A stretch of 64,000 bases of DNA from Alphaproteobacteria bacterium (lineage in GTDB: Bacteria; Pseudomonadota; Alphaproteobacteria; Bin95), in contig CAXXWS020000002.1 of the NCBI GenBank assembly GCA_963665325.3, positions 32,001-96,000 on the forward strand. Reading direction: 5' to 3'. Below are positions 25,311 through 52,560 of the stretch, piece by piece. The first letter of the stretch is position 1; each line of letters opens with the position of its first letter. Below the pieces are notes generated by a model. It made no database searches. It saw nothing but the letters and a program-made list of their open reading frames with translations, and was not told the origin of the DNA. The position numbers and the translations under genes are program-made.

Positions 25311-25800
25311 GACCAAGAAAAATTCCTAAAAATTCCTATTTTGTTTCAAAATGGGCTTGACCCTGGAAAAAGTGTGCTACACTGTCACCGAGGGAAGTGG
25401 CGTCCGGGGCCGTTTCCCTCGGATCCGAAAAAGACACCCGCAAAACCGACGGGAGACGTGCGCCCTGCGCCAGCCTCGCGCGCGGGCGCAATCAGGCGCG
25501 CGAAACGCGCCGGCGCTAGCGGGCGCGCCCGCCCGCGCGCGAAACGCGCGAAAAGGGGCGCTGGCCGCCGCCTCGATTCCGCTCGAAAGGAGACCCGATG
25601 ACTGCAACCGACCCCCGCCCCGAACCGCGATCCGGGGTTGCTCCGAGAACCGAGGCTGGGCCCCGGCTCGGAGGCCGGGGCGACGGTTGGGGGACATGCC
25701 CCGTCCGCATGCGGAACATGACATCTCGTGACACATGGCAGGGTGGACCCCTGACGCCGCATGACGAAACATGACACTTCATGACACTTGCGGGGATATC
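25311..25800 (+). repeat. Dispersed element copy A (promoter-hairpin-core-short ORF-CATGACA array)
   Basis: Shares AAACCGACGGGAGACGTGCGCCC (25443-25465) with 33346-33368 and GCGCAATCAGGCGCGCGAAnCGCGCCGGCGC (25486-25516) with 33402-33432 and revcomp 52075-52105; heptamers at 25750/25760/25770/25780; boundaries approximate. Confidence 0.85.
25598..25774 (+). CDS. Putative 58-aa ORF inside element copy A (may be a relic)
   Basis: GAAAGGAG RBS then ATG; ends ...HDET* in the CATGACA array, like the TerS-like ORF of copy C (...HDRT*). Confidence 0.3.
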   Translation: MTATDPRPEPRSGVAPRTEAGPRLGGRGDGWGTCPVRMRNMTSRDTWQGGPLTPHDET

Positions 25801-25977
25801 CCGGCGGCCCGCCGCGTGGCATCCGTCGGAACCCGGCCAAGGCTCCTGACCGGCGCCATAAACTCGGCGCGTCTTGTCGCCGGCTGTGGAGACAGCCAGA
25901 GTCGGCGCGCCAGGGGCAGGCAGGGTACAAGGCTTTGATGGATGAACGACGGTAGAGAGTCGCGGAGTAGCTGCTCC

Positions 25978-31208: not shown

Positions 31209-32197
31209 GCCGCGAAACCCCCGCCGAGTTCGTCCTCGATGAAGATGCGCACGATCTCCTCGAAGTCCGCGTCGGTCTCGAAGCCGAGCGCCTGCCCCCG
31301 CGCCGGGTCGAAATGCGTGGCCCAGCCGTTCACGATCTCCTGGATGAACGGGTCGGGCTCGAAATGCACGCGCGCCGCCACCCGCTCGCCCGCAACGGCG
31401 GCCAGCGCTGCCAGCATTTGCTCGACGGTGACGGTGAGGCCCGGCAGCGCCAGCATCCGCGCCGGCCCCCAGGCCTCGGGCGGCATGGCGGCCGCCTTGA
31501 GCACCGCGTCCACCACCTTGCGCGGCGACAGCACATACATCGCCTGGTCCGGCTCTACCGGACAGACGGCTTCCTGGCCCTGGAGGGGCTCGCGGATGAT
31601 CGAGCTTGCCCAGGTCGAGGCCGCCTTGTTGGGCTTGCCGGGCCTTACCACGACCGTCGGGAAGCGCAGCGCCCGCCCGTCCACATGGCCCTTGCGCGCA
31701 TAGTCCTGCACCAGCAGTTCGCCGATGGCCTTCTGCGTGCCGTAGGAGGTCTGCGGGTTCAGGATCAGTTCGTCCGGGATCGTCTCCGGCATCGCACCGC
31801 CATAGACCGCGACCGAACTTGCGAAAACCATGCGCGCGGGCTTCGGCAGGTCCCGGGCGGCGGCCAGCACATTCATCGTGCCCTGGAGGTTGACCGTCAT
31901 GCCGAGGTCGAAATCCTCCTCCGCCCCGGCGCTCACCACGGCGGCCAGGTGGAACACGGCGCCCGTGTCGGGCGCGATGACGGCGCGCACCTGCTCGGGG
32001 TCGCCGATATCGCCGATGCCCGCCTCGACGCGCGGGTCCTGCAGCAGGTACGGGTCGGGCGCGGCTCGGTCGAACAGCACGATGCGCTCGACCGGCTGCT
32101 CGCGGCCCGCGGAATCCGTGAGCGCGTTGAGTTCGAGCAGCCTGAGCGCGAGGCGCCGGCCGATAAAGCCGGCGCCGCCGGTAATCACGACGCGCAT
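31205..32197 (-). CDS. denD: D-erythronate dehydrogenase-like NAD-dependent epimerase/dehydrogenase
   Basis: TGGAGFIG, HLAAVVSAGAEEDFDLG, SYGTQK, RPGKPNKAAS..ASSIIREPL. Confidence 0.8.
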
Positions 32198-33000: not shown

Positions 33001-33212
33001 GTCACGGGGTCGGCGCGAGGCTGTTCCAGTTGAAATCCTTGAACAGCGGCAGGGCTTCCGGATCGATATGGAAGCTCCGGTATTTGGGGCCCATGGTGCC
33101 GATGCTGGGTTCGATTGCCCCCGTCCTCCCGGAAGGCGTCGCCCGCGCCAGTATGGCCGAAACCGGTTGCTGTGGCGAACGGGGACATCCGACCTGCGCC
33201 CCAGGATTGCGA

Positions 33213-33660
33213 TTTGTTCATAAAATAAGAAAATTTACAGAAACAACTTGACTCCCGGAAGGTTCGGCCCTAGATGGGGCGGGAGGAAGGAAGCGGCATC
33301 CGGAGGCCGTTTCGTTTGGCGCCGGCGCGAAGAAAGACCCCCGAGAAACCGACGGGAGACGTGCGCCCCGCGTTTGTCTTGCCTTGCGCGCGGGGGCACA
33401 GGCGCAATCAGGCGCGCGAACCGCGCCGGCGCCAACGCGCCGGCCCGCGCGCACGCGATACGCGCGAAACAGGGTCCCGCCGCAAGGGGAGACGGGCGGC
33501 GGGGAAATAGAACAAAACAGGATTTTCAGGAGGGGCCAATGCCGAAGACAGGGACGAGAACGAACCGGACGGAATACCCCGAGCCCCTGCCCGAAAGGAC
33601 TGGACGACATGCGCCCTGCGTATGCGGATCATGACAAAACATGACACTCCCGGGGTGTTC
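33213..33660 (+). repeat. Dispersed element copy B
   Basis: TTGACT at 33248, hairpin GAAGCGGC/GCCGTTTC, both core blocks, CGCGATACGCGCGAAACAGGGTC shared with copy C, AGGAGG-ATG at 33539, CATGACA at 33630 and 33640. Confidence 0.85.
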
Positions 33661-33705
33661 CGCAGCGGAAACCGGCCGCGCCGGTTGCGGACCGGGGCGA
33701 GGCCG

Positions 33706-34251: not shown

Positions 34252-34321
34252 GACCCGGCCCGCTTAGCATGTTTACGGCATGCGGGCATCCGCTCCGCCG
34301 GTGCGTTCGTCTCGCCCCGAG

Positions 34322-34508
34322 AAGCTTGGCGGGGGAGAATGCTTGGTAAGATGGGAATGGAGGAAAGGCGGCTTCCCGGAGCCGCCTTTTCGAATTCGGA
34401 AGGCGGGGGCGAGAGGGATATTCCCGAAAGGAACAGGAAACATGCGCCCGGCGCAGGGAGCCTCATGACATCGCATGACATTTCATGACACATCGCTGGA
34501 GTGGGCCC
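34322..34508 (+). repeat. Dispersed element copy D (minimal: promoter, hairpin, RBS, CATGACA x3)
   Basis: TTGGCG-N15-TAAGAT, hairpin GAAAGGCGGC/GCCGCCTTTTC, CATGACA at 34464/34474/34484; 34484-34508 matches revcomp 50926-50950 at 24/25. Confidence 0.75.
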
Positions 34509-34608
34509 TTTGGGACCGTCAGGCGGCGGCCCGGTTTGCGTGTCCGGAGGAAGCGGCTATACCTCTGGGCGGCCCGGAACGGGCGGCCGAGAGGCGGTAT
34601 CGAAAGCG

Positions 34609-50884: not shown

Positions 50885-50955
50885 CGGCGCCGGGTTCCGA
50901 GAGACGCGATGCAGCGCGTCCGCCGGGGCCCACTCCAGCGAAGTGTCATGAGTTG

Positions 50956-51936
50956 TCATGTTCTGTCATGGTCCGGCGCGGAACCGGCGCCCTCGAGCCC
51001 GGTCTTCCTTCCCCTCTTCTTCTTTTTCTTTTTCGTCGCCGGTCCACTCCAGTCACCGTCTTCGCCGCCGCCCCGTTCTTCCCGTTCGAGGCGGTTCCGC
51101 GTTCGCTGCCCGACCTCCTCCGGGGCCCAGGGGGCGTAGATTTCGTCGTAGCCGTTGCGGCGCTGGTAGAGCCAGTCATGTTCGGCGCCGTCGGCCCTGT
51201 CACCGTCGACCCTGTCCTCGTCGCCGGACCCTTCGCCACCTGCCCACGGGCAATCCTCGTAGGTCTCCTCGGGCGGGTCGTCGGCGGGGGGCCGGTCTTC
51301 GGGCGAAGCCGGTTCGGGGGCCTCGAAGCAGACGGGCAGTCGCGTCCGCTCCTCGACGGCCCCGGCGAGCCTGCGGGCAACCTCCTCATGCGCGGCCCCG
51401 TCGAAGCCCTCCTGCGCCTCAAGCTCCTCCCGGCTGGCATGGTGCCGCGCGAGCGCGCATCGGGCGCGGTCGAGGCCGCTGCGCACGGCCTCGACGAGCG
51501 GCCCGGGTTCGGCTCCGGCCTCCTCAGCCTCGCCCGCTTCGATCTCGCCGAACTCGTCCTCGTGCGGCAGCGGCCAGAGCCCCGCACGGCGCGCGGTCGT
51601 CGGCCCCGTAAGCCCCGCGATCTCGGCCTGGAAGCGCAGCACCCGGAGCATCGTGTAGGCCGAGCCGCTGGCGACGGCCGCGTCCCACGCCTGCTCCAGC
51701 CGGGCAAGCAGGATGCGGGCCTCGTCCCGCTCGGTGCGCTTCCATGACAGGCGGATGCGCCGCAGCCGTTCGACAATGTAGGGTCGTTCCAATAAGGCGC
51801 AGCCGGTCTGGCGGGCGGAGCGCCCGGAGTAGCCGGCCTGCCTTGCAGCGTCTGCGGCATTGCCGGAGACGGCATAGTGGCGGCAGAAGGCTTCCTGGCG
51901 TGTGGACAGCGCGACGGCGGGTTGGATGATGGGCAT
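50956..51936 (-). CDS. Terminase small subunit-like HTH protein with long low-complexity tail
   Basis: N-terminus LSTRQEAFCRHYAVSGNAADAARQAGYS..SARQTGCALLERPYI fits Terminase_2 (PF03592) pattern; AAGGAG RBS. Confidence 0.75.
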   Translation of the reverse strand: MPIIQPAVALSTRQEAFCRHYAVSGNAADAARQAGYSGRSARQTGCALLERPYIVERLRRIRLSWKRTERDEARILLARLEQAWDAAVASGSAYTMLRVLRFQAEIAGLTGPTTARRAGLWPLPHEDEFGEIEAGEAEEAGAEPGPLVEAVRSGLDRARCALARHHASREELEAQEGFDGAAHEEVARRLAGAVEERTRLPVCFEAPEPASPEDRPPADDPPEETYEDCPWAGGEGSGDEDRVDGDRADGAEHDWLYQRRNGYDEIYAPWAPEEVGQRTRNRLEREERGGGEDGDWSGPATKKKKKKRGRKTGLEGAGSAPDHDRT

Positions 51937-51953
51937 GGGGCGGAGCTCCTTTC

Positions 51954-51968
51954 GTTCCGCTAACGTTC
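51954..51968. promoter_or_regulatory. Alphaproteobacterial LexA (SOS) box
   Basis: GTTC-CGCTAAC-GTTC, exact GTTC-N7-GTTC, immediately upstream of the RBS of the TerS-like gene. Confidence 0.7.
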
Positions 51969-52282
51969 TTTCGAGTCGAACCTGATTTCAGGGCCGACAC
52001 ACAGCCATCACCCCGACCCGTCTCCGGAGCGACCCTGTTTCGCGCGTATCGCGGGCGGGCGCGGGCGCGTGTTGGCGCCGGCGCGGTTCGCGCGCCTGAT
52101 TGCGCGCGCGAGCCGGAGGACGCACTTCGCCTGTTTGTTGAATCGGGGTTGTTCTGCGCCGGGCCGGCGCGAAGGGAAGCGGACCATGGATACCGCTTCC
52201 CTCGGAGCCATTGTAGCATAATTTCCTGAGGGTCAAGCCTGTTTCGGAATTAATTCAAAACAAGAGAACAAGAAGTCATGCC

Positions 52283-52560
52283 GGCGGCTTCACCGCCGGG
52301 CGCGTCATCGGCAAGTGGATCGGCTTCTACAACACCATCAGGCCGCACTCGGCGCTGGGCGGACGGACGCCGGCCGAGGCCTACTGGGACGGCCCGCCTG
52401 TGGATATGATGGACGAGCCGCTTCGCGCCTTGACCACATCCCCACAGGCGCAGCAGCAGCAACAGGAAGATCGACTCAAGGGGATTCTGGCGGCCTGAAC
52501 TTCAACCGGGATACATCTTAACTCAGCCGTCAGGCTGTCCGACGAACCGAGGCCACCTCA
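52283..52560 (+). mobile_element. IS3-family remnant (3' end of OrfB and right end)
   Basis: Frame encodes GFTAGRVIGKWIGFYNTIRPHSALGGRTPAEAY (stop 52496-52498); terminus CTGTCCGACGAACCGAGGCCACCTCA ends in CA. Confidence 0.85.

Follow-up and report, generated by a model that had tools for sequence, protein, structure and literature searches.

A previously undescribed, genus-restricted family of modular repeats with a putative promoter and a covarying leader hairpin in an alphaproteobacterium

Results

The window considered here, i.e., the entire 64,000-nt stretch that was analyzed, spans positions 32,001 to 96,000 of the forward strand of contig CAXXWS020000002.1 (C3:32001-96000 in our numbering) of GenBank assembly GCA_963665325.3, an alphaproteobacterial genome (GTDB Bin95; G000 in the following) of 5.58 Mb in five contigs with 67% G+C. 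It holds four copies, A to D, of an ordered unit belonging to a previously undescribed, genus-restricted and putatively promoter-bearing modular repeat family. An initial annotation had singled out positions 25388-25560 in copy A as a conserved structured leader and candidate noncoding RNA (ncRNA) motif shared by the element copies; this stretch is the 5' module of a repeat unit that occurs genus-wide and in high copy number. On the plus strand, copy A begins with an AT-rich left block (25318-25356; AAAATTCC repeats, TTTGTTT at 25340-25346) upstream of the -35 element of a promoter-like block (25357-25383), which comprises TTGACC (25357-25362), a 15-nt spacer with TG at 25375-25376, and TACACT (25378-25383). 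The first hairpin (hp1, 25388-25422) starts 5 nt after TACACT, its arms CCGAGGGAAGTGGC (25388-25401) and GCCGTTTCCCTCGG (25409-25422) enclosing the loop GTCCGGG. It is followed by a GC-rich core (25448-25558) that runs from GACGGGAGACGTGCGCC via GCGCAATCAG (25486-25495) and two hairpins, GGCGCG-CGAAA-CGCGCC (25495-25511) and CGCGCG-AAA-CGCGCG (25536-25550), to GAAAAGGGG. Behind AAGGAG (25587-25592) lies the cargo, a decayed 'MTATDPRP...' open reading frame (ORF) of ~58 codons (25598-25774), which extends into the 3' module (25717-25807) consisting of CATGACA heptads with a 10-nt period (25717-25733 and 25760-25786) and a terminal CTTGC-GGGGATATCCCGG.

The other three copies are variations on this plan. 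Copy B (33205-33665, plus strand) combines a TTGACT -35 element (33248-33253) and CTAGAT (33270-33275) with an hp1 at 33290-33313 (arms GAAGCGGC and GCCGTTTC), a core at 33351-33474, a 3' hairpin at ~33475-33503, a short MPKT frame starting at 33540, and heptads at 33630-33646. Copy D (34320-34510, plus strand) is a short form in which promoter, hp1 and 3' module are present without the core: TAAGAT is found at 34347-34352, hp1 at 34363-34389 (arms GAAAGGCGGC and GCCGCCTTT; a pattern with one match in the window versus 0.00 expected), and the heptads at 34464-34490 are followed by CGCTGGAGTGGGCCC. Copy C (50925-52300, minus strand) is a full-length unit of what we term the T type, with TTGACC at 52236-52231, TACAAT at 52215-52210, an hp1 starting 7 nt downstream of the latter (52203-52171; arms GAGGGAAGCGG and CCGCTTCCCTT), a core at ~52133-52031, an ORF for a 326-aa protein resembling terminase small subunits (TerS) at 51936-50956, and heptads at 50970-50944 followed by CGCTGGAGTGGGCCCC. 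The hairpin, -10 and block sequences quoted in the initial annotation were all recovered at their positions in A, B, C, and D. Mutual similarity of A, B, and C lies far beyond chance (E 1e-24 to 1e-32; A matches B at 1e-32 and C at 2e-24), A and B have an exact 23-nt block in common (AAACCGACGGGAGACGTGCGCCC), and the double-heptad pattern was matched eight times in the window versus 0.01 times expected.

Using copies A, B, and C as blastn queries against G000, we obtained 71 clusters, 68 of them at least 100 nt long, with 31 on contig C1, 19 on C3, 16 on C4, 5 on C5, and none on C2. To speak of a leader shared by the element copies thus understates the extent of the family by about 20-fold. 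A 24-nt core motif (up to five substitutions) anchors 65 of the 68 copies of at least 100 nt, the three unanchored ones having lost an internal segment or taken up an island. From 45 of the 65 anchored copies, we derived a covariance model of the core with 87 positions and 17 pairs (R1). It gave 67 matches in G000 and 15 to at least 120 matches per genome in 13 of 16 congeners, adding up to ~1,100 matches over 14 genomes. There were no R1 matches in congeners G001, G003, and G014, nor in 10 plus 10 genomes of the two sister genera of the family; a DNA search likewise returned 13 of the 16 congeners and none of 16 genomes of the same class outside the family. All copies are intergenic. By crude ORF calling, the downstream gene is co-oriented in 37 and convergent in 23 of 60 cases; in view of this weak bias, we rejected the element as a promoter donor for downstream genes.

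Order and orientation of the parts are the same in all copies: AT-rich block, promoter, hp1, a second GC hairpin, core, variable cargo, and heptads. The AT-rich block contains tTTGTTC and GAAATAATTCC and precedes the -35 element in most copies; further upstream, the sequence is GC-rich and unrelated. Column conservation over 63 copies amounts to C.79, T.97, T.95, G.98, A.86, and C.73 for the -35 region,.81/.81 for the TG dinucleotide of the extended -10 element, and T.70, A.79, n, n, A.90, and T 1.00 for the -10 element itself, a CTTGAC/extended -10 form that we take to resemble the alphaproteobacterial consensus. Spacer columns are conserved at only.3-.7. The second GC hairpin consists of GCGCCGGCGCG followed by an A-run, or, in one subfamily, of GGGGC, an A-rich loop, and GCCCC. 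The core of ~110 nt has the consensus GACGGGAGAcGUGCGCC ... GCGCAAUCAGGCGCGCGAACCGCGCCGGCGC ... CGCGAUACGCGCGAAACAGGG, then a further hairpin UCCCGCCGC ... GCGGCGGGG. A small AUGCG...CGCAU hairpin is located just before the heptad array, and the right end is marked by yTTCGC-GGGG(n)TCCC, often TGGAGTGGGCCCC, a short GGGG/CCCC palindrome. From the -35 element to the last heptad, units measure 317-2562 nt (median 474.5 nt; T type 1365-1386 nt); unit length is 320-1390 nt in 58 of 60 measured copies, the remaining two reaching ~2.3-2.6 kb. Some middles are purine-rich and GGA-rich. Several copies, among them C3_1198793 (L044), C4_243108 (L049), C4_746541 (L059), and C1_684754 (L008), carry a 52-nt two-hairpin unit (GGCGGCGTCAACGCCGCC ATCTGCAATGTT CGCCGCGTTCGGCGCGGCG) in 1-4 tandem copies between core and middle. 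In a tandem arrangement at C1:1,882,780-1,883,200 (L022), the heptads of the first unit run straight into the core of a promoter-less second copy. A D-like short unit at C1:661,400-661,700, with promoter remnant, hp1, short frame, and degenerate heptads, begins right after the apparent 3' end of a tRNA gene (...GGTTCGAGTCCCTCAGCGGCCACCA).

Conservation of the leader next to its promoter, as claimed by the initial annotation, is borne out over 63-64 copies for the promoter columns and the core blocks, and so is the claim that the first hairpin keeps pairing despite sequence change. The length of hp1 varies between 8 and 15 bp across copies and its start between 5 and 15 nt after the -10 element; 84.2% of its cells pair versus 80.3% in shuffles and 39-59% in controls with slid partners. 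Six of its ten pairs change on both sides, and two-sided changes are found in 44 cells versus 21.9 ± 3.4 in shuffles; none of 500 shuffles reached either the observed fraction of paired cells or the observed number of two-sided cells, although such counts are not probabilities because the copies share descent. The sense strand of hp1 folds better than the antisense strand in 46 of 63 copies (Wilcoxon p 9e-5, with copies not independent of each other). As far as comparative data can say, hp1 thus appears to be a structured RNA element. The core shows a different kind of constraint: all 64 aligned copies agree in the AATCAG part of GCGCAATCAG (columns 87-92), the GCGC columns before it are conserved at 90% or more, and the invariant blocks have a mean pairwise identity of 0.90 versus 0.63 (0.46-0.96) for the whole aligned core region. 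Fixed promoter positions and core blocks beside spacer columns of 0.3-0.7 and an overall identity of 0.63 speak for selection rather than recency. A known RNA family was rejected, in agreement with the original statement that the leader is not a recognized riboswitch: an Rfam 15 scan of the whole window at gathering thresholds gave no match, and a scan of copy B at E<=10 gave four chance-level matches of 13.6-17.9 bits versus gathering scores of 42-80, i.e., 24.1-65.1 bits too low.

What follows the leader differs from copy to copy. Five copies, including copy C, are of the T type and encode the 326-aa protein T, residues 11-80 of which match Pfam Terminase_2 (E 4.7e-12, 47.2 bits, cutoff 26.1) and which also matches the PHROG terminase small subunit (E 8e-14). 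The C-terminal 200 aa are acidic and of low complexity with a lysine run, and neither Pfam nor further family searches assigned this part to a family. A second cargo defines the M type, 'MTATDPRP...', with intact relatives of 152 and 187 aa in C3_952882 and C4_290209; no family was returned for it by Pfam, PHROG (E below 0.001), NCBIfam, or PADLOC, and BLASTP does not relate it to T (E 2.0). Copy A is a decayed M type; its frame stops at a TGA within the heptads, and a separate repeat of the GGGCCCCGGCTCGGAGGCCGGGGCGAC type breaks it up. This different, GC-rich hairpin repeat occupies window positions 25640-25695 and recurs near other copies and at G003 and G008 loci, pointing to a second, independent repeat family. 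In one copy (C3:935,536-936,420; L041), a 204-codon isochorismatase-like ORF, judged from its sequence, is located between core and heptads as if captured. Most copies have only short middles, such as MPKT..SR.NRTEYPEP in copy B; conserved peptides were rejected here, as indels are not multiples of three and stops fall into different heptads, and the MPKT frames are conserved as nucleotides rather than as peptides. PADLOC had no match for T either, and a role of T and M in defence was rejected.

These cargos bear directly on the idea, implicit in the initial annotation, that the stretch is the leader of a gene. In the T type this holds, as the module forms a ~250-nt 5' untranslated region (UTR) of the gene for a TerS-like protein with a helix-turn-helix (HTH); in the family at large, only a minority of copies have it as a genuine 5' UTR. 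A leader that regulates in cis in the classical manner, sensing a signal for the gene behind it as a riboswitch-like element or an attenuator, would fit the position between promoter and Shine-Dalgarno sequence/ATG in T and M types, and also the length, GC-richness, and conservation of the leader. Such an element would nevertheless be expected to keep company with related genes, and downstream content is unrelated across copies (TerS-like gene, M ORF, isochorismatase-like ORF, or no conserved frame at all), which largely refutes this view. With a putative aptamer devoid of covariation, 50-120 copies per genome, and no match in Rfam, we regard it as highly improbable.

The most regular part of the unit is its heptad array. 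At least two CATGACA heptads at 10-nt spacing occur downstream on the same strand in 62 of 65 anchored copies; most units have three (34 units), others four (10), five (9), two (7), six (1), or nine (1). Conversely, 65 of the 78 heptad-array clusters of G000 lie behind a core on the same strand, and the other 13 are mostly core-deleted or truncated units. Owing to the 10-nt period, three heptads place TGA, and also ATG, in all three frames. The tract, which is G-poor and unstructured within a putative transcript that is otherwise GC-rich and has stops in every frame, would suit a portable Rho entry or insulator site. In all five T-type copies of G000, and in G005, G013, G002, and G004, the array overlaps the T stop codon; T-type units in the latter four genomes keep the same leader and array, and a T-type copy in G008 has the same leader before the gene and no heptad array that we could find behind it.

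Such a juxtaposition of gene and array invites a reading at the DNA level, in which the HTH of T would bind the CATGACA arrays as a small terminase does at a pac or cos-binding site beside its own gene, the dispersed arrays would serve as entry sites for packaging or recombination, and the leader would merely be the T 5' UTR carried along into decayed copies. The Terminase_2 HTH at the N-terminus of T is in line with this, the five T genes being the sole Terminase_2 matches in the genome, and so is the period of 10 bp that puts the heptads on one face of the DNA helix. Among 15 congeners searched, 11 yielded T homologues, with several to 17 matches per genome when fragments are counted; G009 and the three element-free genomes yielded none. 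At least two heptads accompany 3 of 13 cores in G009, versus 10 of 13 in G008 and 15 of 15 in a further ten genomes with T. It is a hint from this single lineage that the 5' module can persist and multiply in the absence of T, the arrays seemingly being kept only where T is present. The genomic context of T tells another story. The single Terminase_6N match of G000 (C1:484011-484640) belongs to an ordinary prophage, none of the five T genes being located there; its head module (C1:472,000-492,000; L081) comprises a small terminase, large terminase, portal, Mu-F-like head protein, protease, and endolysin, so that the sole large terminase sits beside its own small terminase. Pfam Phage_capsid (HK97-type) had no match in G000, hence no cluster resembling the gene transfer agent (GTA) RcGTA is evident, and a GTA link was rejected on these two grounds. 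By its domain, T belongs to the Terminase_2 HTH family; by its genomic context, it does not. Considering, moreover, that the C-terminal 200 aa of T match no family, that G009 has amplified the 5' module without T, and that conservation of promoter and core in ORF-less copies would be left unexplained, we consider the packaging-like system unlikely.

Comparisons between genomes gave a first impression of how units evolve. T copies of one genome all have much the same identity to the window copy (G000 92-93%, G005 78-80%, G012 73-74%, G008 66-67%), which is the pattern that lineage-specific bursts or concerted evolution would produce. In G009, with at least 46 cores detected by R1, all 13 copies examined have an intact, homogeneous 5' module, and this ~260-bp module alone is what is repeated: pairwise similarity usually starts ~160-180 nt before the anchor and ends ~80-86 nt after it, with modules up to 100% alike. 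Downstream of hslO, a T-type unit in G000 corresponds to a short-type unit at the same place and in the same orientation in G016 and to an IS-disrupted unit in G011 (IS, insertion sequence), with none in G005, G013, and G003; the differing units fit cassette exchange between conserved ends. Upstream of ubiH, the unit is absent in G003 and represented in G005 by a promoter-plus-hp1 fragment only. At this latter locus (window positions 25810-25945, compared with L123-L127), G011, G016, and G013 hold a ~330-codon gene (MTDDFGIWEVDE...) directly upstream of ubiH, which is partial in G005 and G003 and deleted in G000 save for an upstream GAGACAGCCAGAGTCGGCGC motif and the last codons.

Units are themselves targets of insertion. 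Copies at C1 ~777,140-777,800 (L009) and C4 ~14,300 (C4_14298) are interrupted at the same point of the CGCGATAC|GCGCG hairpin by an identical insert (CGCACCTTCGGTGCTAACTATCTGACATGA...). Behind it, L009 has the gene for a phage-type integrase whose N-terminal region is arm-binding-like. The repeat core appears to serve as the attachment site of an integrating island. IS elements reside inside CATGACA arrays at C1_1283667 (L013) and C4:317,070-319,700 of G000 and at L078 of G011, the same IS end (CTAGTGTCCGGTTGAGGCGG...) recurring within an array of either genome. The array of copy C4_319676 is split by a different IS, which has the end GGGGATTACAAAGATGACTTGAC, and in L014 and L047 the TGGAGTGGGCCCC... 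end of an IS3-like element comes after the array.

Discussion

The arrangement of the unit and the pattern of its conservation lead us to favor, with confidence somewhat above even, the reading that the stretch singled out initially represents the transcribed 5' module of a portable unit of promoter and leader, with hp1 as 5'-terminal stem-loop and an invariant block that is read by its sequence, and that the family is maintained at the DNA level. Each unit would be a small self-contained transcription unit with a sigma-70-type promoter, and its 5' module a portable promoter and leader that is transcribed in most copies. The stem-loop hp1 would then form the very 5' end of the unit's RNA, and the invariant block may be a recognition site for one factor common to all copies. 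Units would spread and homogenize as DNA, either because their conserved ends recombine or undergo conversion or through the action of an enzyme, without behaving as a classical inverted-repeat transposon. Architecture, copy number, distribution, pattern of conservation, and covariation of hp1 are results of the sequence comparisons, whereas we infer transcription, the role at the RNA level, the common factor, and the mode of spread.

A number of observations weigh against this proposal. As to the promoter, 48 of 63 copies have a spacer of 15 nt and the other 15 one of 16 nt, and a scan for E. coli-type sigma-70 promoters reported none at A, B, and D and only an unrelated site at C; this can be explained by the 16-18 nt spacer that the scan requires. 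As to transcription, a search for RNA sequencing runs of this organism found none; contigs with related copies in metatranscriptome X2 have a depth of 3.5-6.4, not above that of flanking-gene contigs (3-6), and may be DNA. As to RNA structure, hp1 covaries, subject to the shared descent of copies mentioned above, and the claim of a conserved structured leader stands for this hairpin; it does not stand for the downstream ones. RNAalifold predicted 12 pairs in the core with no compensatory change among them, five manually defined core helices were paired to 86.4% versus 86.0% in shuffles with 3 versus 3.5 two-sided-change pairs, and adding 41 copies from 12 other species (105 copies, 13 species) revealed no double change in helices P1, H3, and H5, the latter showing many A-C or C-C cells in this set. 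Folds of minimum free energy for single sequences had no helix common to more than about one-third of the copies, and a consensus fold based on them was rejected because the folds disagree among copies. The original argument that tolerance of G-U pairs points to function as RNA did not hold up either: the core helices contain 68 G-U versus 67 A-C cells, i.e., no sense-strand bias (hp1: 49 versus 39), and the antisense strand of the core folds better than the sense strand in 51 of 64 copies. Sequence constraint on the core is clear; its hairpins are conserved as sequence, not demonstrably as pairs.

The postulated spread of units meets difficulties as well. Comparing left and right copy ends by eye, we saw neither terminal inverted repeats nor target duplications, and no clean empty site was readable at the hslO or ubiH loci, where boundaries and duplications are blurred because neighboring genes differ between species. 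The units are therefore only putatively mobile. On the minus strand, the left end of copy C is abutted by the remnant of a transposase C-terminus with an rve-like integrase core (window positions 52260-52420). It is only 72% similar to another copy at C3:659,045-659,276, and an attempt to define exact element ends via this interrupted remnant was abandoned as the homology is too weak.

One might ask whether the family could be a plain selfish repeat, MITE-like (miniature inverted-repeat transposable element) or REP-like (repetitive extragenic palindrome), without any host function, such that recent bursts or gene conversion account for its conservation and the hairpins are by-products of GC palindromes. 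Clustering of T copies by genome, the similarity of up to 100% among G009 modules, the purely intergenic location without strong orientation bias, the breaking of draft assemblies at contig ends by copies, and the insertion of IS elements and the integrase island into copies would all be compatible with this view. The family in G000 is old and diverged, however, with a mean identity of 0.63, and yet its promoter positions and core blocks are fixed; a copy occupies the same site in three species; and the inverted-repeat ends, target duplications, and Y1/RAYT (REP-associated tyrosine) transposase that such elements might display were not seen in G000. We hold the purely selfish interpretation to be very unlikely.

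A further candidate is a family of trans-acting ncRNA genes, in which 50-120 paralogues per genome would each yield an RNA of ~230-450 nt as the product that matters. Its invariant block would bind a protein partner or target, and the ORFs would be secondary. Promoter and core are indeed kept in ORF-less copies despite the overall identity of 0.63, the short MPKT frames are not kept as proteins, the purine-rich, GGA-rich middles and the tandem hairpin repeats look RNA-like, and G009 retains the promoter-plus-leader in 13 of 13 copies while its 3' arrays have decayed and no TerS-like gene was found. The absence of covariation in the core argues against it, no terminator-like end was seen, and to our knowledge 50-120 copies are unheard of for paralogues of small RNAs (sRNAs). 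On balance, we regard such an RNA gene family as unlikely, if less so than the other alternatives. A Csr-type sponge RNA was rejected, since G000 has no match to CsrA (PF02599). A bolder variant would have the ~260-bp promoter-plus-leader be an autonomous, self-propagating RNA gene and the founder of a new abundant RNA class of 50-120 genes per genome, with the invariant 60-90-nt block as its working part, for instance as RNA subunit of a ribonucleoprotein or as a guide, and with the TerS-like protein and the arrays as an accessory DNA-targeting or packaging layer shed by lineages such as G009. We deem this quite unlikely.

Returning to the portable promoter-plus-leader unit, its mode of operation may be most like that of modular interspersed repeats such as BOX elements, Correia elements, and REPs. 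BOX elements of Streptococcus pneumoniae are intergenic, are present in ~100 or more copies, combine fixed end modules with variable numbers of internal repeats, yield transcripts for which stable hairpins are predicted, and have no transposase of their own. Our units are likewise intergenic, high-copy, and modular, with the 52-nt two-hairpin module in 1-4 tandem copies as a possible counterpart of internal repeats; they differ in having no sequence relation to BOX, in belonging to another phylum, and in carrying a conserved putative promoter, a 110-nt invariant block, heptads, and sometimes a protein gene. Correia elements of Neisseria, which are short, high-copy, intergenic MITEs with outward or internal promoters, can give promoters and RNA hairpins to neighboring genes. 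What defines a MITE is a parental IS together with target-site duplications and terminal inverted repeats; none of these was seen in the present units, whose ends were compared by eye and are asymmetric, the AT-rich block and promoter lying at the left and the directly repeated heptads at the right. REPs are palindromes of 20-40 nt, often tied to RAYT transposases. Unlike these, the unit described here is mostly 320-1390 nt long, ordered, and equipped with a putative promoter, and the genome has no Y1_Tnp (PF01797) match, although 6 of 14 reference genomes used as controls did; a REP/RAYT or IS200-type single-strand element was rejected for this reason.

Among Alphaproteobacteria, Br-REP1 and Br-REP2 of Bradyrhizobium are intergenic GC palindromes at 50 to ~200 sites, located within transcripts and varying strongly in abundance between related species (PMC5082802). 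Our units resemble them as genus-level intergenic GC-palindrome repeats with many sites. A literature search on CATGACA intergenic repeats, terminase-linked repeats, and alphaproteobacterial multicopy sRNAs or intergenic repeats, supplements excluded, gave no description of the element among the papers listed. Phages such as SPP1, P22, P1, and lambda (cosB) have terS-pac modules, in which repeated binding boxes lie within the small terminase gene or next to it. T genes with their Terminase_2-type HTH similarly end in short direct repeats phased at about one helical turn, yet they have no adjacent large terminase or portal, the T tail is long, acidic, and matches no family, and arrays occur at 78 dispersed sites, mostly without the gene. 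Finally, the 'cuckoo' RNAs and alpha-r families of Alphaproteobacteria are multicopy sRNAs with 2 to ~10 copies that are represented in Rfam. Our units are comparable in being paralogous, putatively promoter-driven, and spread over several replicons, and unlike them in having 15 to at least 120 matches per genome and none in Rfam.

Conclusions

For genome annotation, the family has the consequence that T genes are labeled 'terminase small subunit' though they lie outside phage packaging modules, and it ties this orphan small-terminase-like protein to dispersed repeat arrays. Units break assemblies and act as landing pads for IS elements and for the integrase island. Exchange of cargo between conserved ends may occur, as the hslO locus suggests. 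With ~1,100 natural variants in 14 genomes, a data set is at hand for the roles of the invariant GC-rich block and the phased heptads. If the promoters fire, each genome would have 50-120 extra small transcription units that are able to read into their neighbors, 37 of 60 downstream genes being co-oriented.

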